Source: Candidatus Micrarchaeia archaeon
GTDB lineage: Bacteria > Chloroflexota > Dormibacteria > Aeolococcales > Bog-877
Assembly: GCA_035533215.1 (NCBI GenBank)
Contig: DATLUG010000028.1
Span: 7,680-71,679, forward strand
Length of the DNA: 64,000 bases
Reading direction: 5' to 3'
Translations under genes and position numbers: made by a program
The notes under the pieces: model-generated
What the model was told of the DNA's origin: nothing
Seen by the model: the letters and a program-made list of their open reading frames with translations, nothing else
The model's database searches: none
Shown: positions 4,100 to 60,749 of the stretch, one piece after another
Layout of the letters: every line of letters starts with the position of its first letter
Numbering within the stretch: the first letter of the stretch is position 1

Positions 4100-4124
4100 C
4101 CGCTCGCCCCCGGCCCGGGGCGGC

Positions 4125-44579: not shown

Positions 44580-46526
44580 TCACGAGGCGGCCCGGGCCGT
44601 GTCGCGGCTGCGGCGGTGCTGGAGCAGGGCGGGGCGGAGGGCCTGCTCGGGCACCGGCCGGCGCAGGAAGCCGTCGGCCCCGGCCGCCCCCGCGGCCGCG
44701 GGGGCGGCGCCGCTGGTGACCAGCAGGACCGCCAGCTCGCGGGTGTCGGGCTGCTCTCTGAGCTGGTCGAGCAGGTGCTCGGCCCCCTCCCGGTCCAGGT
44801 CCGCGAGCAGCAGCACCACCGCCGGACGGAGCGCCGCCGCCGCCCGCAGCCCGGTGGGACCATCGGTGGTCCCGGCGAAGTCGAACCCGGCCGCGGTCGC
44901 CTGGACCTCCCAGCGGCCGAGCGCCTCCGGGTCCTGGGCGACGCCGAGGACCAGCGGGTGCTCCTGCCGCCCGGCGCGCAATCCCGCGCTCACCCGGGCC
45001 AGCGGCATCTGGATGGTGAAGCGGCTGCCGAACCCCACCTGGCTCTCCACCTCGATCCGGCCGCTCATGAGGGTCGCCAGCCGGCGCGAGATCGCCAGCC
45101 CCAGTCCGGTCGAGCCGAGCTCGTCGTGGATGCGGGCCGTCCCCCGGCGGAAGGCGTCGAAGATCGACTCCCGGTCCGCCTCGGGGATGCCGGGCCCGGT
45201 GTCGGCGACCGCGACCTGGATCGTGGTCGTCGTGGTCCGCAGCTCCACCGTCACCCCGCCCGCCTCGGTGAACTTGACCGCGTTGCCGACCAGGTTGGTG
45301 AGCACCTGGGTGAGGGCCCGGGGATCGGCGAGGGCCGCCGCCGGCTCCAGGCTGGGATGGAGGGTGAGCACCAGGGACTTCCGGTCGGCCACCGACCGGG
45401 CGTCCTCGACCACCTGTCGGACGATGACGTCCACCGCCGTGACGGCGCAGCCGACCTCCATCCGGCCGGCCTCCAGCCTGCTGAGGTCGAGGATGTCGCT
45501 GATCAGGCCGAGCAGGATGCGACCGTTGCGGATGACCCGATCGAGGTGGTCCTGGGCGGTCTCCGGGATGACCCCGGCGGCGCCGGTGCGGATCAGCTCG
45601 GCGAAGCCGAGGATGACGTTGAGCGGGGTCCGCAGCTCGTGGCTCATGGTGGCGAGGAACTCGCTCTTCACCTGGACCGCGCGGGCCAGCTCGGCGTTGC
45701 TGTCGCTGAGCCGCGCCTGCTTCTCCTGGAGGTGGAGCCCGGCGGTGGTGAGGTTGGCGTGGAGCTCGCGCAGCTCCGGGGTCCCCCGGGGCGGCTCCAG
45801 CCGGATGGGCCGGTCGTCGCCGAGGTCGCGGGCCATCTGCCCGAGGGCGGCCAGCGGCCGGAGGACCGACCGGGCGGTGAGCACGATCAGGGTGCCGGCC
45901 ACGACGCACCCGATCACCGACGTGAGCAGGACCAGGATGAAGATCTCGAGCTGGGCGGAGGCGGCCTGGCTGAGGTCCGCGGCGACCTGCGCCGAGGCCG
46001 CCCGCTTCAGCTGGCCGGCGGCGGTGTCGATGCGGTGGAAGAGCCGGTCGCCTTGGGGGAGCGCGGCCAGCAGCCCGGCCAGCGGGGTGGTGGCTCGGGC
46101 CCGGAGCTGGGGGGCGAGGTAGGCGCGCTCCCAGGTGCGGGCCCGCTGGCGCACCTGCGTCAGCGCCAGCACCAGGGCCCGGTCCCGCCGGGTGAGGCCG
46201 GCCAGGGTGGCCTCGTCGGCGGTGGCGGCGGCGAGGTTGTGGTGGACGGCGGCGAGCGAGCTCGCGTCGCCGGTGACGAGCGTCTCGCCGAGGGCGGTCT
46301 GGGCGCCGAGGAGATGGTTGAAGAGCCCGTCGGTGCTGGCCTGCAGCGGCAGGTCCCGGTGCCGCAGCTGGTTGTTGGCGGCCTGCATCGCGGTCAGCTG
46401 GGGCACCGCCGCCACCAGGTTGAGGACCAGCACCCCGACCAGGAGGAGGAGTCCCCCCGCCAGGCGCTGTCCGATGGAGGCGCTCCCGGGCCACCCGCGG
46501 CGGCGGCCGGCGACCGGCGCGCTCAC
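44580..46526 (-). CDS. Hybrid sensor histidine kinase: TM helix, ~170-aa extracytoplasmic helical sensor (CHASE3-like), TM helix, HisKA, HATPase_c and a C-terminal receiver-like domain
   Basis: H-box ATMSHELRTPLN. N, G1 and G2 boxes (LVGNAVKF, DTGPGI, GLGLAI). GTG at 46526 with a GTGA overlap on the EAL gene stop. The track ORF extends to 47927 (antisense artefact). Confidence 0.85.
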   Translation of the reverse strand: MSAPVAGRRRGWPGSASIGQRLAGGLLLLVGVLVLNLVAAVPQLTAMQAANNQLRHRDLPLQASTDGLFNHLLGAQTALGETLVTGDASSLAAVHHNLAAATADEATLAGLTRRDRALVLALTQVRQRARTWERAYLAPQLRARATTPLAGLLAALPQGDRLFHRIDTAAGQLKRAASAQVAADLSQAASAQLEIFILVLLTSVIGCVVAGTLIVLTARSVLRPLAALGQMARDLGDDRPIRLEPPRGTPELRELHANLTTAGLHLQEKQARLSDSNAELARAVQVKSEFLATMSHELRTPLNVILGFAELIRTGAAGVIPETAQDHLDRVIRNGRILLGLISDILDLSRLEAGRMEVGCAVTAVDVIVRQVVEDARSVADRKSLVLTLHPSLEPAAALADPRALTQVLTNLVGNAVKFTEAGGVTVELRTTTTTIQVAVADTGPGIPEADRESIFDAFRRGTARIHDELGSTGLGLAISRRLATLMSGRIEVESQVGFGSRFTIQMPLARVSAGLRAGRQEHPLVLGVAQDPEALGRWEVQATAAGFDFAGTTDGPTGLRAAAALRPAVVLLLADLDREGAEHLLDQLREQPDTRELAVLLVTSGAAPAAAGAAGADGFLRRPVPEQALRPALLQHRRSRDTARAAS

Positions 46527-47815
46527 GCCTGCCGCCTCAGGCCCCGGAGCGGGTGCCCCGCCGCCTGGCGGAGGGCCGCCAGGCCAGAGCCGGTGAGCGG
46601 CGGCGGATCCTCCGCCGGGCAGGCGAGCAGGAAGCCCTGGCCGTAGTCGACCCCCAGGCGTCGCAGCATCAGCAGCTGGGCGCGGGTCTCCACCCCCTCG
46701 GCGATCACCTCGGCCCCGATGCTGCGGGCGAGGTGGACCAGAGCGCTCACCACCGACTGGCGCACGGGGTCCTCCTCGCAGCCCTGGACCAGGTGCATGT
46801 CCACCTTGATGAACTCGGGGGCGAGCAGGGCCAGGGTGCCGAGCCCGGCATAGCCGGAGCCGACGTCGTCGAGCGCGTAGCGGTAGCCGCGTCGGCGGTA
46901 GCGGTCGGTGTGACGTCGGAAGGTGGTGAGGTCGGCGATCGGGCGCCGCTCGGTGACCTCGGCGACGATCTGGTCCTCCGGCCAGAGGTCGGGGCGATCC
47001 CAGTCGTGGCGGCGGGGCGGGGGGGCGTCGCCGAGCTCGCGGGGTTCGACGTTGACGAAGAGCAGCAGGTCCGGGCTGGCGAAGCGCTGGCCGGCCCGCA
47101 GCCGGGCCAGCCACACCAGCTCCCAGTGGAGCCCGCCCAGCAGGCCGGCCTGGTCGGCCGCCTCGAAGAGCCGACTCGGCATCTCCAGGGGGTGGTCGAC
47201 CGGCCCGCGGCAGAGCGCCTCGTAGCCGACGATCGCGCGGCGCTCCAGGTGGACGATCGGCTGGAAGAGGATCCGCAGGCGCTGGTGCTCCAGCAGGCTC
47301 GCCACCTGCTGGAGATGGGCGCGGCCGCGCGCCAGCACCGCCGCCCGGTCGCCCAGGGTGTTGAGCATGGCCCGCACCATGAGGGCCACCTTGGGCTCCA
47401 GGCCGACGGCCTCGGAGCCCGCCACCACGCTGACCCCGCACTGGGGGTGGCCGGCGGCCTGCAGCCGGGCGCCGATCTCGACCTCCAGGGTCTGGGCGGT
47501 GCGGAGGTCGTTGATGCGCCGGCAGGCGCCCTCGGCGCCGCCCAGGACCACCGCGGTGAGGACCGGGTCGCAGCGTCCGATCGCCGCCACCCCGTGGGCG
47601 CCGACCAGGGCGGTCGCCGCCTCGCGGACGGCGCCGGCGGTCACCGCCTCCGGGGCCGGGGGGTCGACCCCGACCAGGAGGACCCGGGTCGGGCGGCCCG
47701 CGAGGATGCGGCGGGTGACCTCGCGCTCCGCGCCGGCGCGGTCGAGCGGCGCGGCCGCGGGCACCGGGGGTGCCGCGGCGCGCTGCGGCTCGGCTGCGGG
47801 CATCGTCGTCCTCAT
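46523..47815 (-). CDS. EAL-domain protein (putative c-di-GMP phosphodiesterase) with an uncharacterised N-terminal domain
   Basis: IVGYEALCRG (EAL motif), DDVGSGYAGL and EGVETRAQL, which are conserved in EAL domains. Confidence 0.8.
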   Translation of the reverse strand: MRTTMPAAEPQRAAAPPVPAAAPLDRAGAEREVTRRILAGRPTRVLLVGVDPPAPEAVTAGAVREAATALVGAHGVAAIGRCDPVLTAVVLGGAEGACRRINDLRTAQTLEVEIGARLQAAGHPQCGVSVVAGSEAVGLEPKVALMVRAMLNTLGDRAAVLARGRAHLQQVASLLEHQRLRILFQPIVHLERRAIVGYEALCRGPVDHPLEMPSRLFEAADQAGLLGGLHWELVWLARLRAGQRFASPDLLLFVNVEPRELGDAPPPRRHDWDRPDLWPEDQIVAEVTERRPIADLTTFRRHTDRYRRRGYRYALDDVGSGYAGLGTLALLAPEFIKVDMHLVQGCEEDPVRQSVVSALVHLARSIGAEVIAEGVETRAQLLMLRRLGVDYGQGFLLACPAEDPPPLTGSGLAALRQAAGHPLRGLRRQA

Positions 47816-47966
47816 GGGTGTGGATCGCGGCCCGCGCCCGACCTGGAAGGCAAGCCCGGGCGCTCCAGCTGTGAGTGTGGCCGCCCGCTGTCACGGGGCC
47901 ATCGCGCCCGGGCGATGACCCGGTCACGCCTCGCCGTGGGCCGCGCCGGCCGTCCGGCGGCCCCGC

Positions 47967-48617
47967 TCAGAAGTGGCGGCCGCGCACCCGGGCGATGTCG
48001 AAGCGGGCCGTCCCCGCCACCGCCATCACCGCCATCACCCCGGCCTGGATCGGGTCCGTGACCACGAGGTCCACCGCGTCCACCACCGAGCCGGCCTGGT
48101 GCAGCGAGATCACCGTGATCCCATGTCCCCGCACCTCCCGGACCGCCTCGGTGATGGCCCCCCCCATCAGCGAGCCGGCCAGGACCAGGATCACCGCCCG
48201 CGGCAGCCGTCGGACCGCCCGCACCGCCTGGGCGATCTCCTGCTCGCCCACCAGCGGGATGGTGTCGACGCTGATGCGCTCCCCGCGGATGTTGTGGCGG
48301 TCGGCCTCGTTCACCGCTCCCTGGGCCACGATCGCCACCTGGGCCCCGCCGCCGATGACGATCACGCGCTTGCCGAAGATCGTTAGCTGGGTGGGCACCC
48401 GCTCGACCCCGAGGACGCCCAGGGCCCCCCCCAGGTCCAGCGCCACCCGGTCCGGGTCCGGGCCGTCCTCGATCTCGAAGTGGAGGAACACGGTGTCGGG
48501 GTCCTCGCGGGTGAGGGCCACGTCGCGGATGTCGGCCCCCGCCCCGGCCAGGCTGGTCGCCACCCGGGCGAGGGTGCCGGGGGCGTCGCGGCAGCGGCAG
48601 GCGATCGCCCAGGTCAT
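47967..48617 (-). CDS. ACT-domain protein (amino-acid-binding regulatory fold) with a C-terminal uncharacterised domain; last gene of the leu cluster
   Basis: N-terminal ACT-like beta-alpha-beta-beta-alpha-beta pattern (AIACRCRDAPGTLARVATSLAGAGADIRDVAL). Confidence 0.55.
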   Translation of the reverse strand: MTWAIACRCRDAPGTLARVATSLAGAGADIRDVALTREDPDTVFLHFEIEDGPDPDRVALDLGGALGVLGVERVPTQLTIFGKRVIVIGGGAQVAIVAQGAVNEADRHNIRGERISVDTIPLVGEQEIAQAVRAVRRLPRAVILVLAGSLMGGAITEAVREVRGHGITVISLHQAGSVVDAVDLVVTDPIQAGVMAVMAVAGTARFDIARVRGRHF

Positions 48618-48710
48618 GGCGGGTGAGTGTACCGGCGGCCCGCACGGCCGCCGGCGGGGCGGGCGTTCGCCGGGCGGGTGCCCCAGCGGCCGCCGGCGGC
48701 GGCGGGAGGC

Positions 48711-49331
48711 TCAGGCGTCGAGCCCGACCGTCACCGGCAGGAGCGGGGAGCGCTCCTGCTCGTGGGCCGCGATGGCGGCCTCGCGCTGGAGCGCCATCCC
48801 CACCGGGTCGCGTCCCTCCAGCAGGCAGGCCCGCCAGAAGGGGTCGACGGTGAACGGCGCGGTGAGGCCCTCGCGGTCGCGCAGCTCGCCGGCGGCGAGG
48901 TCGACCACCAGCCGGTACCCGTCGCGGCGGCCGCCGCGCTCCATCAGCCGGGCGACGGTCGGGGCCGGCAGGGTCACCGGCAGGAGGCCGTTCTGGAGCG
49001 CGTTGACGGTGAAGATGTCGCCGAACGAGCTGGCCACCACCACCCGGACGCCGGCGTCGAGCAGGGCCCAGGCGGCGTGCTCCCGGGAGGAGCCGCAGCC
49101 GAAGTTGCGCCCGGCCACCAGCACGCTGGCGCCGCTGAAGGCCGGGTGGTTCAGCTCGAAGTCGGCCCGCGGCCGGCCGGCGGCGTCGACCCGCCAGCCG
49201 AAGAAGCAGCCCTCCGCGTAGCCGTCGCGGCCGGTGCGGCCCAGGAACTGCTTGGGGATGATCTGGTCGGTGTCGACATCGTCGCGGGGCAGGATGGCGA
49301 CCAGGCCCTCGTGAGCGGTGAAGGTGCGCAC
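48711..49331 (-). CDS. leuD: 3-isopropylmalate dehydratase small subunit
   Basis: HEGLVAILPRDDVDTDQIIPKQFL...GRNFGCGSSREHAAWAL are LeuD hallmarks. Confidence 0.9.
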   Translation of the reverse strand: MRTFTAHEGLVAILPRDDVDTDQIIPKQFLGRTGRDGYAEGCFFGWRVDAAGRPRADFELNHPAFSGASVLVAGRNFGCGSSREHAAWALLDAGVRVVVASSFGDIFTVNALQNGLLPVTLPAPTVARLMERGGRRDGYRLVVDLAAGELRDREGLTAPFTVDPFWRACLLEGRDPVGMALQREAAIAAHEQERSPLLPVTVGLDA

Positions 49332-49341
49332 CGCCTCGGCC

Positions 49342-50784
49342 TCAGCCCGCGCCCGTCGGCGATGCGCTCGCCAGGGTTGCCGTCTCCAGCTCGCGCACGT
49401 CGACGAAGTGGCCGTGGAGGGCGGCGGCGGCGGCCATCGCCGGGCTGACCAGGTGGGTGCGGCCGCCCGCTCCCTGGCGACCCTCGAAGTTGCGGTTCGA
49501 GGTGGAGGCGCACCGCTCCCCCGGTCCCAGGACGTCGGGGTTCATCCCGAGGCACATCGAGCAGCCCGCCTCGCGCCACTCGAAGCCGGCGTCGCGGAAG
49601 ATGCGGTCCAGGCCCTCCGCCTCCGCCAGGCGCTTGACCGTCTGCGACCCCGGCACCACCATCGCGCGGACCCGGGGATGGGCCCGCCGTCCGGCCACCA
49701 CCGCCGCCGCCGCGCGCAGGTCCTCCAGGCGGCCGTTGGTGCAGGAGCCGATGAACACCCGGTCCACCCCGATGGAGGTGATCGGGGTGCCCTCGGCGAG
49801 GTCCATGTAGGCGAGGGCGCGGACCGCCGCCGCACGCTCGGCCTCGGTCGCCATCCCGGCCAGGGTGGGGACGCTGGCCGTCACCGGCACCACCATCTCG
49901 GGGTTGGTCCCCCAGGTCACGTAGGGGACCAGCTGGGCGGCGTCCAGGAGCTCGGTGCGGTCGAACACCGCCCCCTGGTCGGTGGCGAATCCCAGCCACC
50001 GCTCGGCGGCCCGGGCGAAGTCGGCGCCGGCGGGGACCGCGGGACGCCCCCGCAGGTAGCGGACGGTGGTGTCGTCGGGGGAGACCAGCCCGGCCCGCGC
50101 CCCCGCCTCGATGGTCATGTTGCAGAGGGTCATCCGGCCCTCCATGGAGAGGGCCCGGACGGCGTCGCCGGTGTACTCGACGACCGTGCCCCGGCCGCCG
50201 CCGACCCCGATCCGTCCGATCACCCCGAGGGCGATGTCCTTGGCCGTCACCCCCTGCGGCAGCACCCCGTCGATGCGCAGCTCCAGGGTCGGCGCCACCA
50301 GCTGCCAGCAGCACTGGGTCGCCAGCACCTGCTCCACCTCGGAGGTGCCGATCCCGAAGGCCAGCGCCCCCAGCGCGCCGTGGGTGCCGGTGTGGGAGTC
50401 GCCGCAGACGATCGTCATCCCCGGCTGGGACACCCCCAGCTCGGGGCCGATCACGTGCACGATCCCCTGGCGGGCGTGGTGGAGGCCGAGGAGCGGGATC
50501 CCGGCCTCCCGGCAGTTGGCGTCGAGCTGGCGCAGCTGCTCGCGGGCGACGGGGTCCGGGGTCGGCCGCGACCGCTCCCAGGTGGGGACGTTGTGGTCCA
50601 TCGTCGCCAGGGTGAGGTCCGGGCGTCGGACCCGGCGCCCGGACGCGCGCAGCCCGCTGAACGCCTGCGGCGAGGTGACCTCGTGGACGAGGTGGCAGTC
50701 GACGTAGAGGAGGACACGCGCGCCGGGGTCGCCGTCCACCACGTGGGCGTCCCAGATCTTGGCGTAGGCGGTGCGGGCGCTCAC
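49342..50784 (-). CDS. leuC: 3-isopropylmalate dehydratase large subunit
   Basis: [12 protein letters not shown]...[14 protein letters not shown]...[11 protein letters not shown]...[10 protein letters not shown] are aconitase-family motifs. GTG at 50784 with GGAG 10 nt upstream. The track ORF extends to 50913. Confidence 0.9.
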
Positions 50785-52406
50785 GCGCCCAGCTCCATCC
50801 GGGGCGACCGCAGCTGGCCGGCTCCGCGGTGGCGCGCGGCCCACTCGTAGCCGTCCACCAGGGCCAGCGCGGAGGCGTGGAGGATGTTGCCGGAGCAGCC
50901 CACCGTGGTCCACAGCGCCTCCCCGTCGCTGGAGTCGATGCCGACCCGGACGGTGGCGCCGGTGCCACGGTCGCCGTCGATGACCCGGACCCGGTAGTCG
51001 ACCAGCCGGACCTGGGCCAGCTGGGGGACGTGCGGCACCAGGGCGCGGCGGAGGGCGAGGTCGAGCGCCTCCACCGGTCCCGCGCCCTCGGCGGCGGTGT
51101 GGACCAGCGCCCCCCGCACCTCCAGCTTGACGCTGGTCTCGACCGACTGCCGGGCCGGGAGATCGGGGCGGGTCTCCTGGCGCGCGACCACCAGCACCTC
51201 GCGGAGGGCGAACGGGGGCTGGTCCCCGGGCTGCTCCCGGCGCACCAGCAGCTCGAAGGAGGCGTCGGCGTCCTCGAACGCCCAGCCCGCGGCCTCCAGC
51301 CCCTTCAGCCGGTGCACCAGTCGCCCGCGCGCCTCCGGGTCGAGGTCGGCGAGACCGAGCTCCCGCAGCTTGGCCGCGATGTTGCTCCGCCCGCTCTGGT
51401 CCGAGACCACGGTGCGCGAGCGGTTGCCCACCCGCAGGGGGTCCACGTGCTGGTAGGCGAGGGGGTGGCGGGCCATGCCCTGGGCGTGGAGGCCGCCCTT
51501 GTGCAGGAAGGCCGCCGGGCCCACGTAGGGGCGGTGGGGGTCGGGGGCGCGGTTGACCAGGGCGTCGAACGTCCGGGAGACCGCCACCAGCTCGGCCGCG
51601 TGGCCGGCGGGCAGCGCCGGTCGCCCCAGCTTCAGCTCGCAGTTGGCCGCGACCACGACGAGGTCGGCGTTGCCGCAGCGCTCCCCGCAGCCGTTGAGGG
51701 TGCCCTGGACCATCCGCGCGCCCGCCTCGACCGCGGCCAGCGAGGCCGCCACCGCCAGGCCGCAGTCGTTGTGGCAGTGGATCCCGAGCCGGTCGCCGAC
51801 CCGCTCGCGGGCGGCGGCGACCCCCCGGGCCACCGCCGGGACCAGCTGGCCGCCGTTGGTGTCGCAGAGGACCAGCCAGGCGGCCCCGGCCGCCAGGGCC
51901 GCTTCCAGGACCGCCAGCGCGTAGGCGGCGTCGCCGCGCTCACCGGCGACGCCGTCGAAGAAGTGCTCGGCGTCGAAGACCACGTGGTGGCCCCGGGCGA
52001 CCGCATGGGCGACGCTGTCGTGGACCATCCGCAGGTTCTCCCCCGCGGTGGTCCGCAGCACCGTCTCCGCCTGCCAGCGCGACGCCTTGCCGACCAGGGT
52101 CACCACCTCCGCCCCGGCGTCGAGGGTGAGGCGCAGCCCGCTGTCCTCCTCGGCGCGGGCGCCGGGGCGGCAGGTGGCGCCGAACGCCGCCAGCCGGGCG
52201 GTGGCGAGCGGGGCCCGGCGGAGCCGCTCGAACAGGGCGGTGTCCCGGGGGTTGGCTCCCGGCCAGCCGCCCTCGACGTAGGCCACCCCGAGCCGGTCCA
52301 GGCGGCGGGCGAGCTGGAGCTTCTGGTCGACGCTGAGCTGCATCCCGAAGCCCTGCATGCCGTCGCGCAGGGTGGTGTCGTAGAGGACGACGGCCGGCTC
52401 CGTCAC
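50781..52406 (-). CDS. cimA: (R)-citramalate synthase CimA (LeuA-related, with a C-terminal LeuA-dimer regulatory domain)
   Basis: [14 protein letters not shown]...[15 protein letters not shown] is the CimA-subfamily motif. 541 aa including the C-terminal regulatory domain. GTG at 52406. The track ORF extends to 52661. Confidence 0.75.
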
Positions 52407-53509
52407 GCCGCCACGTCCCGCTCCACCGACTCCACCACCGCGGCCGTCACGGCGGCGGTGCCGGCGGTGCCGTCGAGGTCGGGGGTGAGCGGTCCGGTGC
52501 GGATCACCGCGGCGACCGCCGCCTCCACCCGGCGGGCGAGGTCGTCGCGGCCGAGGGTGTGGCGCAGGAGCATGGCGACGGTGGCGATGGCGCCGAGGGG
52601 GTTGGCGATCCCGCGGCCGGCGAGGTCCGGTGCCGACCCGTGCACCGGCTCGTAGAGCCACGGCCCCGTCCCCCCGCCGCTCGCCGACGGCAGGGTCCCG
52701 AGGGTCCCGGTCAGGGCCGCCGCCTCGTCGGTGAGGATGTCGCCGAAGAGGTTCTCGGTGACGACCACGTCGTAGGCGCGCGGCTCCTGCAGCAGCCGCA
52801 GGGCGAAGCTGTCGACGAGGCAGTGCTCGACGTGCACCTGGGGGTGCTCCGGGGCGACCTCCTCCACCACCGCCCGCCAGAGCCTGGAGGTGGCGAGGAC
52901 GTTGGCCTTGTCCACCGAGGTGAGTCGGCGCCGCCGCCGCTCCGCGGCCGCGAAGGCGACCGCCAGCACCCGCCGGACCTCGGCCTCCCCGTACTCCATC
53001 GAGTCGATCGCGCGGCGGTTGGGCGCGGTGCCGGCGACCCCCTTGGGCCGGCCGAAGTAGGCCCCCCCGGTCAGCTCGCGGACGAAGAGGATGTCGGCGC
53101 CCTGCAGGCGCTCCGGCCGGAGCGGGCTGTGCGCCTCCAGTCCCAGATGGACGACCACCGGCCGGAGGTTGGCGAAGGCGCCCAGCCCGCGCCGGAGGGC
53201 GAGCAGGCCGGCCTCGGGCCGCACCGGCGCCGCATCCCAGCGCGGGCCGCCGACGGCGCCGAGGAGGACCGCGTCGGCGGCCTGGGCCGCCGCCAGGGTG
53301 GCCGCCGGGAGGGGCTCGCCGCAGGCGTCGAGGGCGGCGCCCCCGATCAGGTGGGTCGTGACCTCGCAGCGCAGCCCGGCCGGTCCCAGCACCGCTCGGA
53401 GGACCGTGAGCCCGGCCGCGATCACCTCCGGCCCGATCCCGTCCCCGGGGAGGGCGGCGATGCGGACGGCGCCGCCCTCCCCGGTGGCCGGCCGGTCGCG
53501 ATCGGTCAT
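52403..53509 (-). CDS. leuB: 3-isopropylmalate dehydrogenase
   Basis: IAALPGDGIGPEV...NLRP...DSMEYGE...LFGDILTDEAAALTGTLG are isocitrate/isopropylmalate dehydrogenase motifs. ATG at 53509. The track ORF extends to 54022. Confidence 0.9.
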   Translation of the reverse strand: MTDRDRPATGEGGAVRIAALPGDGIGPEVIAAGLTVLRAVLGPAGLRCEVTTHLIGGAALDACGEPLPAATLAAAQAADAVLLGAVGGPRWDAAPVRPEAGLLALRRGLGAFANLRPVVVHLGLEAHSPLRPERLQGADILFVRELTGGAYFGRPKGVAGTAPNRRAIDSMEYGEAEVRRVLAVAFAAAERRRRRLTSVDKANVLATSRLWRAVVEEVAPEHPQVHVEHCLVDSFALRLLQEPRAYDVVVTENLFGDILTDEAAALTGTLGTLPSASGGGTGPWLYEPVHGSAPDLAGRGIANPLGAIATVAMLLRHTLGRDDLARRVEAAVAAVIRTGPLTPDLDGTAGTAAVTAAVVESVERDVAA

Positions 53510-54759
53510 CCCGGGAGGGCGGTGGGGGCCGCGCCGGCGGCCGCCTGCTCGTCCATCACGGCGTGGGCGATCGCGGCCAGCTCGGCGTCCTCGACCGCCT
53601 TGGCGGTGTCGGCCACGGCCAGGAACCGCTCCCAGCACAGCTGGAACGACTCCGGCGGGAGCTGCACCCCGATCTGGCCGAGGCGGTGGCGGAGGGCGTG
53701 CCGCCCGGAGCGGGCGGTGAGCACGATCCGGGTGCCGTCGGCGCCCACGTCGGCGGCCGACATGATCTCGTAGGTGCGGCGGTCGCGGAGCACCCCGTGC
53801 TGGTGGACGCCCGACGCGTGCGCGAAGGCGTTGGCGCCCACCACCGGCTTGTTGGGGGGGACCGGGATCCCGGTGAGGCGCTCGACCAGGCGACTGGTGG
53901 GGACCAGCTCCTCGGTGCGCAGGTGGTCGAGGAGGTGGAGGACCGGGCGGCGGACCCGCAGGGCCATCACCACCTCCTCGATCGCGGCGTTGCCGGCGCG
54001 CTCGCCGAGGCCGTTGATGCACCCCTCGACCCGGCGCGCGCCGGCCTCGATGCCGGCGAGCGAGTTGGCGGTGGCGAGGCCGAGGTCGTCGTGGCAGTGG
54101 ACGCTGACCAGGACCCGCTCCATGCCCCGGACCTCGCGCCGGACGGTGGCGACCAGGTCGCGGAACTCCGCCGGCAGGCAGTAGCCGGTGGTGTCGGGGA
54201 TGTTGACGACCGCGGCCCCGGCGTCGACCGCGACCTGCACCACCTCGCAGAGGTAGTCGGGGTCGGTCCGCCCCGCGTCCTCGGGCGAGAACTCCACCGC
54301 GTCGCAGAGCGAGCGGGCGTGGGCGATGGCCTCACCGGTGCGCTCCAGCACGGTCCGGCGGTCGAGCCCGAGCTTGTGGGTGATGTGGATGTCGGAGACG
54401 CTGATGAAGACGTGGATGAGCGGCCGCTGGGCCTCCCGCACCGCGGCGTGGACCGCCTCGATGTCGCCCCGGGTGGCGCGCGCCAGGCCGGTCACGCTCG
54501 GCCCCTCCACCTCGCGGGCGATCCGCTGCACCGCCTCGAAGTCGCCCGGCGAGGAGGCCGGGAAGCCGGCCTCGATGACGTCGACGCCCAGGCGGGCGAG
54601 CTGGTGCGCGACCAGGAGCTTGTCGGCCAGGTGCAGGGTGGCCCCCGGCGACTGCTCGCCGTCGCGCAGGGTGGTGTCGAAGAACTGGACCAGCCGAGCG
54701 GGGGCGCCCGCCACCGCCTCCGATACGTCGGGGTTGGCGCTCGCGGGCGGCGCGCTCAT
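53506..54759 (-). CDS. leuA: 2-isopropylmalate synthase, short form lacking the C-terminal LeuA-dimer regulatory domain
   Basis: [19 protein letters not shown]...[20 protein letters not shown]...[22 protein letters not shown] is type-1 LeuA. Only 417 aa, whereas regulated LeuA is 510 aa or more. Has an ATGA overlap with leuB. Confidence 0.8.
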
Positions 54760-55808
54760 CCGCCGCTCCCGGACGGGGTCGCGGCGACGGGCTCGGTCTC
54801 GGCGGTGGGGATGTGGGCCACCGGCACGATCCAGGGCATGTGGTCGCGCAGGCGCTGACCGACCTCCTCCAGCGGCTGGCGCCGCTCCTCGGCCCGCCGC
54901 CGCAGGAAGGCCGCCCGCCCGGAGCGGTTCTCGTCGATCCAGCGCTCCGCGAAGCTGCCGTCCTGGATCCGTCCCAGCACCTCGCGCATCCGGTCGCGGA
55001 CGTGCTGGTCGATGATGAGAGGGCCGCTCTCGTAGTCACCGAACTCGGCGGTGTCGCTGACGCTGTAGCGCATCAGGGAGAGGCCGCCCTGGTACATGAG
55101 GTCGACGATGAGCTTGAGCTCGTGGAGGCATTCGAAGTAGGCGAGCTCGGGCTGGTAGCCGGCCTCGACCAGGGTCTCGAAGCCGGCCTTCACCAGCTGG
55201 GCGACGCCGCCGCAGAGCACCGCCTGCTCCCCGAAGAGGTCGGTCTCGGTCTCCTCGCGGAAGGTGGTGCGCAGGACCCCGGCCCGGGTGGCGCCGAGGG
55301 CCCTGGCGTAGGCGAGGGTGCGGGCCAGCGCCCGACCGGTCGGGTCCTGGTGGATCGCCAGCAGCGCCGGGCAGCCGATGCCGGCCTGATAGGTGGAGCG
55401 GACCATGTGGCCGGGCGCCTTGGGAGCGACCATCGCCACGTCGCAGCCGGCGGGCGGCTGGACGGTTCCGAAGTGAATGGCGAAGCCGTGGGCGAAGAGC
55501 AGCAGGGCGCCGGGACGGAGGCCGTCGCCCAGGCCCTGCTGGAAGAGCGCCGCCTGGTCGTGGTCCGGGATCAGCACCATCACGACGTCGGCATCGCGGG
55601 CGGCCTCGACCGGGTCCAGGACCTGGAAGCCGTCGCGGGTCGCCTGCTCCCGGGAGCGGCTGCCGGGACGCAGGCCGACGACCACCTGGTGGCCGCTGTC
55701 GCGCAGGTTCTGGGCGTGGGCGTGGCCCTGGCTGCCGTAGCCGAGGACCGCGATCCGCGCCCCCTCGAGCGCCGAGGGGTCGCAGTCGGCGTCGTAGTAC
55801 ATCTCCAT
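54756..55808 (-). CDS. ilvC: Ketol-acid reductoisomerase
   Basis: [10 protein letters not shown]...[21 protein letters not shown]...[11 protein letters not shown] are IlvC class I motifs. ATG at 55808. The track ORF extends to 56099. Confidence 0.9.
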
Positions 55809-55813
55809 CCCGG

Positions 55814-56428
55814 TCACTGTCCTCGCTGCTGGGTCGTCGGGGGGGCGCCGGCGGCGGTACCGGCCATTGTCACAGGCTGGCCGGGGGCACAGGCGAGCGG
55901 CCCGCTGCAGACCCAGTCGGCGCCCGGCAGCGGGCGCAGCGCCTCCAGCCGGGTCGCCAACTCGGCCGGCGGTCCCGCCACCGCCACCACCACCCGGTCG
56001 GCGTCGCGGTGGAGGATCTGGCCGTCGAGCCGGGCCACGGCGGGATCGACGATGGCCTCCGCGCCGCGCCGGTCGATGGTCACCAGCGCGGTGGTCCACT
56101 CCACCCGGGGGGTGTCGGTGATGTCCTCGACGCTGACCACGTCGATCAGCTTGGCCAGCTGCTTCACCACCTGGTCGGGCGGCTGGTAGCCGGGGTCGAC
56201 GCGCAGGGTGAGGCCGGCGATGCCGGGCTCCGGCGTCGGGCCGACCGCGCAGGTCTCGAGCCGGAAGCCCCGCCGCTGGATGCAGTTGGTCACCCGCTGC
56301 ATCACCCCGGAGCGGTCCTCCAGCCGCATCGAGACCACCCGCACCCGCCTCCCGGTCGGCTCCGGGATCGGCCGGGGGGCGAGATGGGCATGGGGGGCCT
56401 CGTGGGCGCCCCCCTCGGCCAGGGTCAC
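55814..56428 (-). CDS. ilvN: Acetolactate synthase small (regulatory) subunit
   Basis: ACT domain [45 protein letters not shown] at 56428 with a GTGA overlap on the ilvB stop. Carved from track ORF 55814..58096. Confidence 0.75.
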
Positions 56429-58164
56429 GACGGGTCCGGGCATTCGACGAAGTCCGCCAGCCCCTTCCCGAGCGGCACGATGGGGTAGATGTTGGCCTCG
56501 GGGTCGATCCAGACGTCGACGATGGCCGGACCGGGGTGGGCCAGCGCCGCGTCCAGGGCCGGGCCGACCTGGTCCAAGCGCTCGACCTGGGCGCCGAAGC
56601 ACCCGTAGGCCTTGGCGAACAGGGTGAAGTCGGGGGTCGCCGCGAGGTCGACCTGGGATCGGACCCCGCCGTAGAAGTCGTCCTGGAATTGGCGCACCAT
56701 CCCCAGGCTGTGGTTGTTGAGGATGAGGACCTTGACCGGCAGGCCCGCGTCCACCGCCGTCGCCAGCTCCTGGGCCGTCATCACGAATCCGCCCTCGCCG
56801 GTCACGCAGAAGACCCGTCGGCGGGGGTGGGCCGCCTGCGCACCCAGGGCGGCCGGAAAGGCGAACCCCATCGTCCCCTGGCCCCCGGAGTTGAGGAACT
56901 GACCGGGCGCGTCGCCGGTCCAGCTGGTCGCGGCCCACATCTGATTCAGCCCGACATCGGCGACCGTGATGTCCTCCGGGCGACGACGGAGGTAGAGCTC
57001 CGCCAGCGCCTCTTGCGGCTGCAGGCGACCGTTGCGCGGATAGCGGGGGGGATGACGCTCGCGCCACCCCTGCACCTGCGCCCGCCAGGCGGGCCGCGGT
57101 CGCGGCGCCAGTCGCGCCAGCAGGGCGTCCAGGGCCAGGCCGGCGTCGCCGACGATCTGGCAGTCGGCCTGCACCGTCTTGCCCAGCTCGGCGGGATCGA
57201 TGTTCACGTGAACCATGTGCTGGGCCCGGGGCGCGAAGCCGTCGATCCGGCAGGTGACCCGGTCGTCGGCTCGCATGCCGACCATCAGGAGGCAGTCGCA
57301 GTCGGTCACCGCGCGGTTGCACGCCCCGGTGCCCATGAAGCCGACCAGCCCCAGCGCCAGCGGGTGGGTGCTGGGGAACACGCCGGTGCCGAGCAGGGTG
57401 GTGCCGACCGGGGCGTCGAGCGCCTCGGCGAGCTGGCGCAGGGCGTCCTCGGCCTGGGCGATGGCGACCCCGCGCCCGGCCAGGATCACCGGCCGCTCCG
57501 CCGCCGCCAGGTGGGCGGCGGCCTGGTCCAGCAGGCCGGGCTCCGGCGGCGGCGGCGCCTGGTGGGCCCGGGCGCGTGTGATCGCGCCGAGCGGGTTCGC
57601 GACCAGCGCCTGCTGGACGTCCTTGGGGATGTCGATCAGCACCACCCCGGGACGTCCGGTGGTGGCCACGTGGAAGGCCTCCGCCACCACCGCCGGGAGC
57701 TCGCGGGCGTCGTGGATCTGGTAGCTGTGCTTGGTCACCGACAGGCTGGAGCCGATCACGTCCGACTCCTGGAACGCATCGGTGCCGATCTGGTGGGTGG
57801 CGACCTGGCCGGTGATCGCGACGACCGGCACCGAGTCGTAGTGGGCGGTTGCCAGCCCGGTGATGAGGTTGAGCGCTCCGGGCCCGGAGGTGGCGAGGCA
57901 GACGCCGACCCGGCCGCTGGCACGCGCGTAGCCGTCGGCCATGTGCGCCGCCCCCTGCTCGTGGCGGACGAGGACGTGGCGGAGCGGGAAGTTGGGCAGG
58001 AACTGGTAGATGGGGAGATTGGCACCGCCGGGGAACCCGAAGATCGTCGTCACCCCGTGGTCGACCAGGGCCTGGAGGAGCAGCTCGGCGCCGCACGGGT
58101 CGGTGGCCACCGCCCGGGTGGGGTCGTCGGCTTCTCGCAGAGCGGCGGCGGGCAGCGCTGCCAT
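56425..58164 (-). CDS. ilvB: Acetolactate synthase large subunit (ThDP-dependent)
   Basis: [23 protein letters not shown]...[22 protein letters not shown]...[16 protein letters not shown] (ThDP motif). GAGGG 7 nt upstream of the ATG. Confidence 0.9.
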
Positions 58165-58368
58165 GACGCCGCCCTCACCCGGCCTGGTAGGTGGCGTCGA
58201 TCGCGGCCGTCAGGGCGGCGTCGGCGGCCAGCTCGCGGATCGGGCGCCCCGGCTCGGCGGCGCGCAGATGGTCGAGCCGATTGCGGGGGCCCTCCCCGAG
58301 GGCGACGTCGTCCGGGACCCGGTCGGGCCCGGATGCGGGATCGGAGGGGGAGTCGGGCGTGGGGATGC

Positions 58369-58598
58369 TCACGGGGTGGTCTCCTCGAGGCGGGTGGGGC
58401 CGGCGGCACGCAGTCGCTGCCGGCAGGGGGCGCAGAGGAGCGCTCCCGATCCGGCCCGGGTCAGGAAGTGGCGGTGGCAGGCGACGCACTCGATCGAGCG
58501 CGCCGGCGCGCGGTGGGGGTGCTGGGCCCGGTCGGTGGGGTCGGCGGGACTCCGACGGGCCGGGATCGACTGGGTGGGATCGGGGCTCGGGGTGGGCA
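58369..58598 (-). CDS. Small (76 aa) zinc-ribbon protein candidate between the attenuator and ilvB
   Basis: ATG with GGAG 4-5 nt upstream. High GC3. Motif ECVACHRHF...LLCAPCRQRL (CxxC-x16-CxxC). No family recognised. Confidence 0.35.
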
Positions 58599-58687
58599 TG
58601 ACGCTCCGGTGGGGCGGGTGATCACGTGGGGGATGGGCGCTTCGGAGGGGTCGTGCGGCAGGCACCCGGTCCCGGCGTCCGGAGGGG

Positions 58688-58728
58688 AAAAAAAGAACCG
58701 GCCCCCCGGGGATGTCGGGGGGCCGGTT
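58688..58728 (-). terminator. Rho-independent terminator (attenuator) of the ilv-leu leader: 13-bp perfect GC-rich hairpin followed by U7
   Basis: On the minus strand: AACCGGCCCCCCG-acauccc-CGGGGGGCCGGUU followed by CUUUUUUU. It lies ~24 nt after the leader-peptide stop and ~520 nt upstream of ilvB. Confidence 0.75.
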
Positions 58729-58751
58729 GCCTTCGCCGTCGTGACCTGGCG

Positions 58752-58835
58752 TTAGCTGAGCGGCCCCCCGCTAATAAGGAGTACGAGGACCCGGAGGTCC
58801 CCCGCGCTCAGCTGGACGGCGAGGTTGGCGCTCAC
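58752..58835 (-). CDS. ilv-leu leader peptide (27 aa), VSANLAVQLSAGDLRVLVLLISGGPLS, with six consecutive branched-chain codons
   Basis: The start is GTG 3-4 nt from the predicted transcription start (leaderless-type). Codons GUC CUC GUA CUC CUU AUU; GUA, CUU and AUU are rare in this GC-rich context. The segment GGGGGGCCG right after the Ile codon is complementary to the 5' arm of the terminator. Confidence 0.6.
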   Translation of the reverse strand: MSANLAVQLSAGDLRVLVLLISGGPLS

Positions 58836-58845
58836 AGTGCGTCCA

Positions 58846-58874
58846 CTTATACCGTGGGATCGTTGCACTGTCAA
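58846..58874 (-). promoter_or_regulatory. Sigma-70-type promoter of the ilv-leu leader transcript (TTGACA-17 nt-TATAAG)
   Basis: On the minus strand: -35 TTGACA (58874-58869), a 17-nt spacer, and -10 TATAAG (58851-58846). This is a near-consensus match. Confidence 0.6.
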
Positions 58875-59442
58875 GCGAAGCGGTGCGCACTTCCCTCGGG
58901 GACGGATGGGTCGGGGAGCGAGACGACGGGCCGAGCGGGCGCTCCACCCGTCCAGGGGCGGCCTGAGGTAGCGCCCGCGATCGTGGAGGTTGGGGGGAGT
59001 CGCACCCGTCGACACCGGGTGAGGGTGTGGGAGCAGGGCTGGAGACCTCGGCGGCCGGCGACGACGCAGGCTCCGCCGGCCACGATGAGTGCCTGGAAGG
59101 AGGCCACCGCGCCGGGCGATGGCCGCGATCGACCAGCCCTGTCGGTGCCGGGCCGTGATGCCCACGTCGTCCTCCCTGCGACCAGGGGGGGAGGCTCCCG
59201 GTGAACTGCGTCACCCCGCCCCAGCACCCCGGAAGCGCGGCGCCCGGTGGGTCCTGATCGTCTTCCCAGGCGAGAGGGCGGCCCACTCCGAGACCCTCAC
59301 CCGTCGACGACGAGGCAGCCACGGTCGGCGAGCGGCTCTGGCCAGATTCGCCCGAGCGCCGTCTGGGACGCAGGCCCGTCCCTGAGCGCCGCATGCGCAG
59401 GACGAGCGTTGGCTCCAGGCAGGCGCCGAGCCCCGAGATGGG

Positions 59443-59808
59443 TCAGCGGATCTGCCGGATGATCTCACTGGACCCCCAACGACTGTCCGCCGTCCACACG
59501 GTGGCATGCAGACGGTGGCCGAGCGCGATGCACAAGCGGTCGGCGAGTGACAGACCACTGCCAGCCGCCCCGTGGACGGCCGCCTGCTCGGCATCAGCGA
59601 CCGTCACGGGTTCGAGGCGAAGGCCATAGCTCCCGAGCAGCGCGCGAGCCAGGCCCCAGTCGCGGCCGTGCGCCCGGACCTTCTGGGCGACCTCGGACCA
59701 GGTGGCGGTGCCGCAGGCGCCCCCGGCGTGCAGGCCGTCCTCCACGGCAGCGGCGCCGTGCTCGCCCTGGAGGAAGGCGAGCAGGGCCGAGGCGTCGAAG
59801 ACGTTCAC
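59443..59808 (-). CDS. vapC: Type II toxin VapC (PIN domain)
   Basis: MNVFDASALLAFLQGE...TWSEV...VHGAAGSGLSLADRLCIAL; PIN-fold acidic residues are retained. 4-nt overlap with the antitoxin. Confidence 0.75.
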   Translation of the reverse strand: MNVFDASALLAFLQGEHGAAAVEDGLHAGGACGTATWSEVAQKVRAHGRDWGLARALLGSYGLRLEPVTVADAEQAAVHGAAGSGLSLADRLCIALGHRLHATVWTADSRWGSSEIIRQIR

Positions 59809-60048
59809 TCCGCGTCGTCAGCGGCGGCCTGGCGCCTCCGATCGGCGAGCAGCTCACCCACCAGGTCGAGGCCCGCCAGATCGGCCCGGACGACCGCCTT
59901 CAGCTGCTCGCGCCCGACGAGCAGCACCCCGCCGGGTGTCTCGACGAGGAGGAGCGGAGTGCCTTCGGCGAAGCCAGCCCGAGCCCGGAGCTCGGCCGGG
60001 ATGACGAGTCGGCCGCGGTTGCCCATCTTCGCCTGATATGTCCCACCC
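59805..60048 (-). CDS. vapB: AbrB/MazE (SpoVT-AbrB fold) type antitoxin, VapB partner
   Basis: MGGTYQAKMGNRGRLVIPAELRARAGFAEGTPLLLVETPGGVLLV is a swapped-hairpin AbrB domain. ATG at 60048. The track ORF extension to 60110 runs into an AT-rich promoter region. Confidence 0.65.
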
Positions 60049-60749
60049 ATCTGTACAAGGTACCACCTGAAATATATTGGTGGGACAATGGGAACGACCA
60101 CGCAGCCCACAAGCGCGGCGGCCCACTGCCGGTCGGTCCTCCCGCTGCCGCGCGAGCCTGGCCGCGTCCCAACGCCATCCCTCGCTCACCCGTCAGCTCC
60201 GACCCGGAATCGTCCCGGTCGAGCGGGGGCAATCAACCACGAGACGCACTCGGGCCCTCCACCTGCCCGGATGGGAGTCAGAGCCGCGGGCTGGCCCCCT
60301 CCCGCGACGACCCCACCAGGACGGCGTCGTTCGAGGCCGGCTGGACGCCTCCCACCGGAAGGCCGGCAGGCAGCGTCGAATGGGATCGCCCCAGGGGTGG
60401 CGGGCCAGCGGCCGGGTCGAGATCCGGCGCCGCGGTCCCCGACGCTGGCGCGCAGCGCGGCGGCGTCGACGTGCGCCCACGTCGACGTGGGGAAAGACGT
60501 CGAGCCGGCGGTCTCGCCCAGCGCGCCCCAAGGGTCCCCGCTGTCATTGGGACGCGCTCGCCATCCCAACGCGGCTCGATGGCACGGACGACCGCGTGGA
60601 ACCTCGCCGGAGATGGGCCCCGACGTGGCGGCAACCCCGCTCGGCGGGAGTCCTGGGGAAAGTCGTCCTGAGCGCGCACCGATTGCGCGCGATGGCGGCC
60701 CCGCGTATGCTCAAAGAAGTTTGTGATTCAAAGTTTGGGAAGAGACGGG

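Follow-up and report, generated by a model that had tools for sequence, protein, structure and literature searches.

We analysed a 64,000-nt stretch of DNA (contig DATLUG010000028.1; the whole stretch is called the window here, and all attenuator and operon coordinates refer to its minus strand) and found, at positions 58688-58874, what is very probably a classical ribosome-mediated leader-peptide transcription attenuator controlling a ten-gene operon, orfA-orfB-ilvB-ilvN-ilvC-leuA-leuB-cimA-leuC-leuD. An attenuator that senses all three branched-chain amino acids (BCAAs) had been proposed at this position in a first-pass annotation made from the sequence alone. Our reading is based on the sequence elements themselves, their conservation and covariation, the complementarity that permits alternative folds, folding under a modelled ribosome footprint, and the structure of the operon, and on these grounds the proposal of ribosome-mediated attenuation stands. 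From the same features, we infer where transcription starts, that the leader is translated, that ribosomes stall on it, and that read-through depends on amino acid supply.

The element opens with a promoter-like sequence in the place first proposed, consisting of a −35 box TTGACA (58874-58869), a 17-nt spacer and a −10 box TATAAG (58851-58846). In an alignment of nine orthologs, TTGAC was invariant in 9/9 sequences, and so were the ATA core of the −10 box and the T after the hexamer, whereas the sequence of the spacer varied freely. A consensus sigma-70 scan of positions 46000-60000 returned no promoter and did not accept TATAAG, because the final base of this hexamer is G and not T. The promoter call therefore rests on conservation, which points to promoter function for 58874-58846. 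The predicted transcription start is an invariant A at 58838, 7-8 nt after the −10 box and 3 nt before a start codon; if transcription begins there, the 5′ untranslated region (UTR) is likely to be 3 nt long and to contain no Shine-Dalgarno sequence. The open reading frame (ORF) that follows, encoding VSANLAVQLSAGDLRVLVLLISGGPLS (58835-58752), begins with GTG at 58835, 10 nt past the −10 box, comprises 27 sense codons and ends with TAA at 58754-58752, in agreement with the essentially leaderless 27-codon ORF of the first-pass annotation. Its peptide tail reads RVLVLLISGGPLS up to the stop codon. Codons 16-21 (58790-58773) are GTC CTC GTA CTC CTT ATT and encode Val-Leu-Val-Leu-Leu-Ile, and the segment GGGGGGCCG (58769-58761) is separated from ATT by a single codon, AGC. 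As in known leader-peptide attenuators, a short ORF thus contains consecutive codons for amino acids that its own operon makes.

Three of these six codons end in A or T, which had been noted as unusual for this genome, and codon counts confirmed the contrast. The G+C content of the window is 75.7%, and among the 3,082 codons of the operon genes only 4 of 731 Val, Leu and Ile codons (0.5%) end in A or T. GTA was used 1 time in 301, CTT 0 times in 331 and ATT 1 time in 99, each accounting for at most 1% of its synonymous family. The binomial probability of at least three A/T-ending codons among the six of the leader run is ~3e-6, and that of a run of six Val, Leu or Ile residues within a 27-residue peptide is ~0.004. 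The degenerate core motif GTANNCCTWATTNNNRGRGG, with one mismatch allowed, occurs once in the window, where 0 occurrences are expected. The genes of relatives also avoid the leader codons (GTA 0-5%, CTA 0-2.5%, ATT 0-8%), and their leaders retain them. No tRNA gene was found in the window.

A search of GTDB contigs representing one genome per species placed the closest IlvB proteins, with 71-75% identity, in metagenome-assembled genomes (MAGs) of Candidatus Dormibacterota. The lineage is thus not actinobacterial, even though Actinobacteria show a similar G+C content and a similar attenuator design. The layout recurs in more than 30 contigs of this phylum; its promoter, 27-codon leader ORF with start and regulatory codons, and terminator are shared by seven related genomes (loci L001-L007) and more than 20 further contigs. 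In ~20 of 24 Dormibacterota-like loci, ilvB is preceded by a G+C-rich hairpin that carries a T-run. In L001-L007, TTGAC(A/G), a ~17-nt spacer and (T/G)ATA(A/C)N are followed after 9-10 nt by a TTG start, and the peptides are exactly 27 codons long, with the tail (V/L/A)LV(L/A/G)LI(T/S/P)GG(P/L/A)(I/L/V/A)S immediately before the stop codon and a terminator beyond it. The leader has 27 codons in 9/9 distinct orthologs; it starts with GTG in the window and TTG in the relatives, with an invariant TG, and the core CTN-GTA-NNC-CTW-ATT is invariant among them. The leader of L081 and L082 (NCBI GCA_027306655.1), VAATYAVQLIARDLRVLVLLIRGGPLS, keeps GTA, CTT and ATT and shows one synonymous CTC-to-CTG change, while the leaders of L083 and L084 are identical to that of the window. 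Mean column identity over the nine orthologs was ~72%, the variable parts being the spacer and, in the peptide, the N-terminal half. Invariant positions comprised the −35 box, the −10 ATA core, an A located 3 nt ahead of the start codon, the start TG, CT-GTA--CCT-ATT, GG-GGG, AGCTA at the stop and both terminator arms.

We also searched metagenome contigs of the Joint Genome Institute (JGI) with the exact pattern GTANNCCTAATTNCNGGAGGG. Of the 40 stretches retrieved, 22 had the full architecture, with the stop codon exactly 30 nt and the terminator ~56 nt past GTA; the other 18 lacked the leader/terminator architecture and were dropped as unrelated. The BCAA codon run that had been expected in orthologous regions was thus present in all orthologs and in 22 metagenomic instances. 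Eight hits to the 21-nt motif (L093, L099, L104, L125-L127, L129 and L130) belong to another recurrent sequence of ~58% G+C, which encodes a product ending in RVCLIAGGWSRPR, has no terminator and is an unrelated conserved element with a chance occurrence of the pattern. More distant Dormibacterota carry leaders of unrelated sequence and the same design, for example, MSEMVANGRVLVLLGILGLIGLGETGARAT. These contain 7-14 Val, Leu or Ile residues, 2-6 of them with A/T-ending codons; the gap from stop codon to terminator stem is 19-26 nt, the complementarity between regions 2 and 3 described below is significant in 7/12, and the terminator lies 25-170 nt before ilvB (288 nt in L015). A few loci carry implausible taxon labels: L001 and L003 (labelled “Candidatus Acidiferrales” and “Candidatus Micrarchaeaceae archaeon”) encode IlvB proteins 75% identical to that of the window and have the Dormibacterota-type cassette of leader and ORF-B, and L013 (labelled “Acidiferrales”) has a 58% identical IlvB and a distant-type leader without ORF-B. 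These labels are probably binning or classification errors.

Beyond the leader ORF lies an intrinsic terminator (58728-58688), formed by a perfect 13-bp stem (arms 58728-58716 and 58708-58696) with a 7-nt loop, then C and U7 (58694-58688); the hairpin letters at 58728-58696 are AACCGGCCCCCCG, ACATCCC and CGGGGGGCCGGTT. The distance from stop codon to stem is 23 nt, close to the ~24 nt first reported for this perfect hairpin. It is the sole terminator-like site in 14 kb of the window (46000-60000) and is placed as expected of an attenuator, after the leader ORF and ahead of the structural genes. Upstream, three further segments can be assigned roles in alternative structures. Region 1a, GCTGAGCGCG (58812-58803), is the 5′ strand of a protector, or anti-antiterminator, and pairs with 58765-58755. 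Enclosed in the protector is an inner hairpin, GGGACC-uccg-GGUCCU (58801-58786, in which 58801-58796 pairs with 58791-58786), which is a possible pause hairpin. Region 2, GGGGGGCCGCTCAGC (58769-58755, codons 23-27), is the partner of either region 1, in the protector, or region 3, in the antiterminator; region 3, CGGCCCCCC (58725-58717), lies inside the 5′ arm of the terminator and provides the 3′ strand of the antiterminator.

The minimum free energy (MFE) structure of the full leader (−85.2 kcal/mol, z = −3.7) consists of a long protector structure plus the terminator. When the 3′ arm of the terminator was left out, the MFE structure held the antiterminator GGGGGGCCG:CGGCCCCCC, so that the mutually exclusive folds anticipated in the first-pass annotation were recovered, with the segment one codon past ATT pairing with the terminator 5′ arm as it had suggested. 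The predicted energies in the window are −29.4 kcal/mol for the terminator, −27.4 kcal/mol for the duplex of regions 2 and 3, and −27.1 kcal/mol for the protector (1:2), and 0/500 shuffles equalled the window duplex of regions 2 and 3. In 8/8 orthologs, this duplex reached −20.6 to −27.7 kcal/mol, which no more than 4 of 500 shuffled versions of region 2 could equal. The pairing also survives sequence change, with CCG:CGG becoming CU:AG in L005 and L007 and GAUC:GAUC becoming GAUU:AAUC in L002.

RNAalifold analysis of the nine orthologs recovered the protector helix (columns 72-81:119-129), the inner hairpin (columns 83-88:93-98), a mini-helix in which CUCC of Leu19/Leu20 pairs with the Gly codons, and the terminator; the alignment is 1 nt out of register for L005-L007 in the terminator 3′ arm. 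Of the 31 pairs, 10 showed double compensatory changes; these pairs belong to the protector, inner hairpin and terminator. Three pairs of the protector helix, which is also present in the full-length MFE structure, show compensatory changes (for example, 77:124, CG4/UA3/GC1), as do 85:96 (GC4/AU3) and 86:95 (AU5/GC3) of the inner hairpin and four pairs of the terminator stem. The anti-antiterminator and its inner hairpin are therefore conserved with compensatory change. The covariation that had been sought in orthologous leaders thus emerged for the terminator and for the protector with its inner hairpin, and not for the antiterminator, which showed a single compensatory pair. By a column-wise count, 79.8% of cells in the antiterminator core were paired in register, compared with 38-65% when one strand was slid. 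Covariation says little about this helix because its core is mostly invariant G:C, and the antiterminator is supported by conservation and complementarity.

We then modelled a ribosome on the leader by masking, codon by codon, a footprint from 15 nt upstream of the A site to 8, 11 or 13 nt downstream, with the nascent RNA truncated at the terminator loop, and calculated the partition-function probability (P) that the terminator 5′ arm pairs upstream. In the window, P was ~0.77 with the A site anywhere up to codon 18-20 and ~0.30 from codon 20-21 to the stop codon. Across the three footprint lengths and in most orthologs, sequestration likewise dropped from ~0.7-0.8 to ~0.3 or lower at codons 18-21; L002, L003, L004, L005 and L007 switched like the window, L001 switched earlier, and L006 was noisy. 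The switch point falls inside the Val-Leu-Val-Leu-Leu-Ile run, which matches what a classical attenuator requires. In this footprint model, a ribosome at UAA masks region 2 and stops short of the terminator stem 23 nt downstream. The geometry is suitable for Val and Leu codons 16-19/20 and marginal for Ile21. The case for sensing is weakest for isoleucine, because its codon is so near the antiterminator strand. Of the proposal that all three BCAAs are sensed, the part concerning valine and leucine is supported, and the attenuator probably senses mainly the charging of Val- and Leu-tRNA, with isoleucine sensed weakly if at all.

The following sequence of events would account for these features. 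A sigma-70-type promoter at 58874-58846 would start an mRNA at ~58838 with a 3-nt 5′ UTR and no Shine-Dalgarno sequence, and a ribosome would initiate at GUG 58835 and translate the 27-codon leader. With plentiful charged tRNAs, the ribosome would reach UAA (58754-58752) and cover codons 23-27 (GGGGGGCCGCUCAGC, region 2); region 3 would then pair with the terminator 3′ arm, and RNA polymerase would stop at U7, releasing an RNA of ~150 nt. With scarce Val- or Leu-tRNA, the ribosome would stall with codons 16-19/20 in the A site, a response that the very rare GUA and CUU codons (CUA in relatives) should sharpen. The stalled ribosome would disrupt the protector (1:2) pairing and leave region 2 exposed, allowing the antiterminator of regions 2 and 3 to form in place of the terminator, and transcription would enter the operon. 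A ribosome stalled at AUU, only 3 nt from region 2, would probably mask part of the antiterminator, so that isoleucine sensing would be weak or absent.

The operon that would be controlled in this way was defined by Pfam and NCBIfam searches of the ORFs. The first ORF past the terminator, ORF-A (58599-58369), encodes a 76-amino-acid (aa) protein with a zinc-ribbon-like CxxC...CxxC arrangement and has GGAG 5 nt before its ATG. ORF-B (58372-58175), encoding a conserved small protein of 65 aa, overlaps ORF-A at GTGA and ends 10 nt before the ATG of ilvB. The gene for the large subunit of acetolactate synthase, ilvB (58164-56425; Pfam TPP_enzyme_N/M/C; TIGR00118, 649 bits against a cut-off of 538), overlaps by 4 nt with ilvN (56428-55814; small subunit of acetohydroxyacid synthase; Pfam ACT_AHAS_ss), which in turn overlaps by 4 nt with ilvC (55817-54756; ketol-acid reductoisomerase; Pfam KARI_N and KARI_C). 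Then follow leuA (54759-53506; a short 2-isopropylmalate synthase of 417 aa; NF002086, 564.8 against a cut-off of 532), with an ATGA overlap with ilvC, leuB (53509-52403; 3-isopropylmalate dehydrogenase; Pfam Iso_dh), cimA (52406-50781; citramalate synthase; TIGR00977, 544 against 450) and leuC (50784-49342; isopropylmalate isomerase large subunit; TIGR00170, 718.6 bits), each overlapping its predecessor by 4 nt. The tight block ends with leuD (49331-48711; isopropylmalate isomerase small subunit; Pfam Aconitase_C), 10 nt after leuC.

In all, 4-nt ATGA/GTGA overlaps are available at seven junctions (orfA/orfB, ilvB/ilvN, ilvN/ilvC, ilvC/leuA, leuA/leuB, leuB/cimA and cimA/leuC), and the gaps at orfB/ilvB and leuC/leuD measure 10 nt each. 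Since the genes also share one strand, the reading as a single supraoperon is well founded, and from the leader to leuD the packing is tight, with no other terminator in the 46- to 60-kb interval. The unified ilvBNC-leuA-leuB-cimA-leuCD unit of the first-pass annotation is thus supported; its count of nine BCAA genes was one too many, as we found eight (ilvB, ilvN, ilvC, leuA, leuB, cimA, leuC and leuD). No ilvD gene is present in the window. Promoters inside the coding sequence of the operon may conceivably exist. LeuA matches profile positions 6-387 of 516 in NF002086 and contains the Pfam domains HMGL-like and HCS_D2 only. It has no C-terminal LeuA_dimer domain, through which leucine feedback acts on other LeuA enzymes; CimA, encoded nearby, retains LeuA_dimer. 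The lack of this domain in LeuA suggests that transcription attenuation may be the main leucine control in this operon.

The terminator lies ~530 nt upstream of the ilvB ATG (58164), with the two small ORFs in between, and no promoter was matched in this gap with either a relaxed pattern or the consensus scan. Searches of ORF-A and ORF-B by tblastn, of which the top hits were used, found ORF-B directly before ilvB in L001-L007 (E 1e-6 to 4e-11). A profile search gathered an ORF-B family of 64 clusters, ~63 aa long, all annotated as hypothetical, none with a Pfam domain and nearly all from Dormibacterota MAGs, with the pattern FPxDIELDEAGRNWV...RPLRxLAADAAVTAAIGxAYGxD. Neither ORF matched a significant family in Pfam or NCBIfam, the closest for ORF-A being a sub-threshold match to the Pfam double-zinc-ribbon family DZR_2 (E 0.007). 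Substitutions in ORF-B were distributed over the codon positions as 330/268/591, 296 of 807 differing codon pairs were synonymous, and independent gene callers also predict it; this pattern indicates that ORF-B is a genuine coding gene. Its AlphaFold2 model (predicted local distance difference test score, 77) has a disordered N-terminus and helices at 27-39 and 45-64 that form a two-helix hairpin, and a Foldseek search of this model against the PDB gave no match with E below 2.

ORF-B stood right after the terminator in 22/22 metagenomic leader instances and behind the attenuator in L001-L007, L081-L092 and L095-L132, whichever operon came next. The most divergent family members, P0062 and P0063, are preceded by the same type of promoter, leader and terminator, with the leaders LIHSSAPTLTTESLSALVRLIAGGLIS and LIHQAALTLTPRGRVALVRLITGGLVS, respectively, and in place of ilvB they have, downstream, small ORFs together with a gene for an SBP_bac_5 ABC transporter. 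The cassette likewise precedes an SBP_bac_5 binding-protein gene in L087/L088 (~2230-5180), L089/L090 (~2210-5180), L108 and L109, which suggests a small attenuator-controlled regulon. Because attenuator and ORF-B are paired before ilvB and transporter operons alike, they appear to travel as a cassette. ORF-A occurs between terminator and ORF-B in some genomes only (the window, L002, L083/84, L098, L107 and L124). In L124, the leader (~150) and terminator are followed by ORF-A (363-518) and ORF-B (542-733), with no recognisable ilvB or SBP gene within 5 kb downstream; this contig may be a rearrangement or a chimeric assembly.

Several observations weigh against the attenuator model and were considered together. 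At the promoter, the final T of the −10 box is absent in 6/9 orthologs, which goes with the failure of the consensus scan. A GUG or UUG start lies 3 nt from the predicted 5′ end without a Shine-Dalgarno sequence, and efficient initiation there is an assumption. Covariation of the antiterminator is weak, as 1 of its 10 pairs is compensatory and its score is no better than that of shuffles, and an A·C mismatch occurs at 117:165 in 6/9 sequences. When codon Ile21 occupies the A site, the ribosome is predicted to hide most of GGGGGGCCG. The ribosome-free nascent RNA of the window favours the antiterminator at equilibrium (P = 0.77), so that the branch in which absence of translation leads to termination depends on the kinetic order of folding. 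The ~530-nt gap between terminator and ilvB could hide a weak, unrecognised promoter. Finally, when regulatory codons were mutated in the look-alike ilvB leader of Streptomyces coelicolor, it did not behave as a classical attenuator (PMC1262725).

This last precedent, in which mutating the leader codons was without effect, lends some weight to an RNA switch driven by a protein or small ligand, such as the ORF-B protein, a CodY- or Lrp-like factor, or guanosine tetraphosphate (ppGpp), with the BCAA-rich ORF incidental or secondary. Such control has been suggested for the ilvB and leuA leaders of S. coelicolor (PMC1262725), and ppGpp riboswitches control some ilvB genes in other bacteria (PMC10272879); moreover, 100% of the attenuators in the close clade are followed by ORF-B, irrespective of the downstream operon. 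We nevertheless consider a switch of this kind unlikely. No Rfam riboswitch or T-box matched at E up to 10, and in distant Dormibacterota the attenuators occur without ORF-B. The fold switches exactly within the codon run, and the fixed length of 27 codons, the invariant start TG and the rare synonymous codons kept in genomes that otherwise avoid them make translation the most economical sensor.

We think it very improbable that the short ORF, with its promoter and terminator, is a separate small gene or small RNA unit and that the ilv-leu operon has a promoter of its own within the 530-nt gap, so that no attenuation would occur. The unusual length of the distance from terminator to ilvB and the two ORFs with Shine-Dalgarno-like sequences of their own would fit such a unit, and attenuator RNAs and leader peptides can act in trans, as with rnTrpL/peTrpL in Sinorhizobium. 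Against it, nothing resembling a promoter, even by the relaxed pattern, lies between terminator and ilvB; the element invariably precedes ilvB in the same orientation, at only 25-170 nt in distant relatives; and an antiterminator that overlaps the terminator would be needless in a plain terminator. Hardest of all to credit is that the conserved C-terminal LI(T/S/P)GGP(I/L)S before the stop codon arrests the ribosome as a nascent chain, in the manner of TnaC or SecM, with the peptide and not codon or tRNA supply as the sensor, for although this tail is strongly conserved and has Gly-Gly-Pro near the stop, its conservation is at the nucleotide level (GGA GGG, despite a preference for G/C-ending Gly codons, pairs with CUCCU, and the pairing partner of CAGCUA lies upstream of the terminator), Pro changes to Leu or Ala (CCG to CUG or GCA) alongside changes in region 3, and the tails of distant relatives are unrelated.

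With ribosome-mediated attenuation as the preferred reading, the pairing of attenuator and ORF-B is the sole unexpected part of the finding. To our knowledge, no “attenuator plus small protein” system has been described for any classical attenuator. A tentative idea, which we regard as doubtful, is that promoter, leader, terminator and ORF-B constitute a portable cassette in which ORF-B, without known relatives beyond Dormibacterota, is a working partner, for example, in trans feedback or as a BCAA-starvation factor made only upon read-through. If so, this uncultured phylum would possess a small BCAA-starvation regulon, defined by the SBP_bac_5-linked copies of the cassette.

The flanks of the operon were also inspected. 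A gene for an ACT and DUF5612 protein (48710-47967, minus strand), 93 nt downstream of leuD, is syntenic in L004, and the next gene encodes an EAL-domain protein of the cyclic di-GMP phosphodiesterase type (47890-46523, minus strand). Upstream of the promoter, a VapBC-like toxin-antitoxin pair (59443-60110, minus strand) comprises a MazE/AbrB-type antitoxin (59805-60110) and a PIN-domain toxin (59443-59808); in other relatives (L081 and L085), a divergently oriented ilvD gene occupies this position. The 568 nt between the stop codon of the PIN gene and the −35 box (58875-59442) contain no convincing ORF and no Pfam or Rfam match, and their sole matches are in L083 and L084, two near-identical contigs. 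The stretch resembles an insertion, as just 8 nt separate the PIN gene from the −35 box in L081.

With these results, Candidatus Dormibacterota, a soil phylum for which metagenomes are nearly the sole source of knowledge, would join the groups in which transcription attenuation is coupled to translation. The leader offers a natural example of rare-codon tuning, as it keeps GUA, CUA/CUU and AUU where 0.5% of Val, Leu and Ile codons end in A or U. The arrangement suggests that the whole pathway from pyruvate to valine, leucine and isoleucine is coordinated from one promoter, with isoleucine made via citramalate and with a LeuA that lacks the feedback domain. It is also of value for annotation, since the leader and ORF-B are missed or called hypothetical in MAGs.

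Among known systems, the leaders of E. coli and Salmonella, namely, ivbL (ilvBN), ilvL (ilvGMEDA), leuL and trpL, use a 1:2 protector or pause structure, a 2:3 antiterminator and a 3:4 terminator, as here. They carry runs of cognate codons, leuL using rare CUA codons, and they have a Shine-Dalgarno sequence and a normal 5′ UTR, unlike the predicted Dormibacterota leader. The regulatory codons also lie much nearer to region 2 here (3-12 nt) than in the enterobacterial leaders.

The ilvBNC leader of Corynebacterium glutamicum, which belongs to the ilvB-II motif, encodes the 15-aa IlvL peptide MTIIRLVVVTARRLP with no ribosome-binding site and with a mapped transcription start 1 nt from the start codon, and its 292-nt leader region forms three hairpins, an anti-antiterminator, an antiterminator and a terminator (PMC11857589). 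The Dormibacterota attenuator is like it in having a BCAA-rich leader ORF without a ribosome-binding site and with the 5′ end beside the start codon (1 nt in C. glutamicum and a predicted 3 nt here), the same three structures, a long leader before ilvB and, by prediction, a short terminated transcript (PMC11857589, PMC10272879). It differs in its 27-aa peptide, which has no sequence similarity to the 15-aa IlvL, in its phylum (Dormibacterota as opposed to Actinomycetota), and in the presence of ORF-A and ORF-B, whereas no ORFs are described between terminator and ilvB in C. glutamicum. There, three genes (ilvBNC) with internal promoters follow; here, one overlapping ten-gene block does. The ilvB1NC leader of Mycobacterium tuberculosis has an upstream ORF (uORF) with the regulatory codons LVVI, including GUA, and a terminator ending at +126 (PMC13236596). 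A BCAA-rich uORF, a Rho-independent terminator, a GUA regulatory codon, a host of high G+C content and a mutually exclusive antiterminator masked by a ribosome at the stop codon are features that it shares with the element described here (PMC13236596). In M. tuberculosis, however, the leader measures 166 nt, ilvB1 lies ~40 nt past the U-tract and three genes follow, compared with ~530 nt and two ORFs here, and that system is supported by SEnd-seq, ribosome profiling and reporters, while the Dormibacterota attenuator is a prediction from sequence.

Two motifs described by the Breaker laboratory, ilvB-OMG and ilvB, are conserved structured ilvB leaders from various phyla that have been reinterpreted as attenuators with BCAA/Thr-rich uORFs (PMC10272879), and comparative attenuator predictions exist for Actinobacteria (PMC1262725). 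The Dormibacterota leader is not a detectable member of the ilvB-OMG, ilvB or ilvB-II motifs in Rfam, nor of the Rfam Leu, Thr, His and Trp leader, ilvB-associated, ppGpp or T-box models. At the gathering score, Rfam gave 0 matches in the whole window, and at E up to 10 between 58000 and 59000, it gave only terminator-driven or spurious ones (ctRNA_pGA1, microRNAs and Guanidine-II at 14 bits). The ctRNA_pGA1 match (58756-58683, minus strand; 31.4 bits against 45; E 4e-4) is sub-threshold, covers the leader-ORF stop and the terminator, and is most likely driven by the terminator hairpin. In a full-text literature search, no article brought together Dormibacterota and attenuators or leader peptides. 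As there is neither an Rfam match nor similarity to known leader peptides, the element is best described as an analogous new member of the class and not as a detectable homolog. That it represents a known, textbook mechanism, of the kind seen in ilvB attenuators from Corynebacterium, Mycobacterium and E. coli, is well supported by the sequence comparisons, and its noteworthy features are the new phylum, the extreme codon contrast, the leaderless design of fixed length and the pairing of attenuator with ORF-B.

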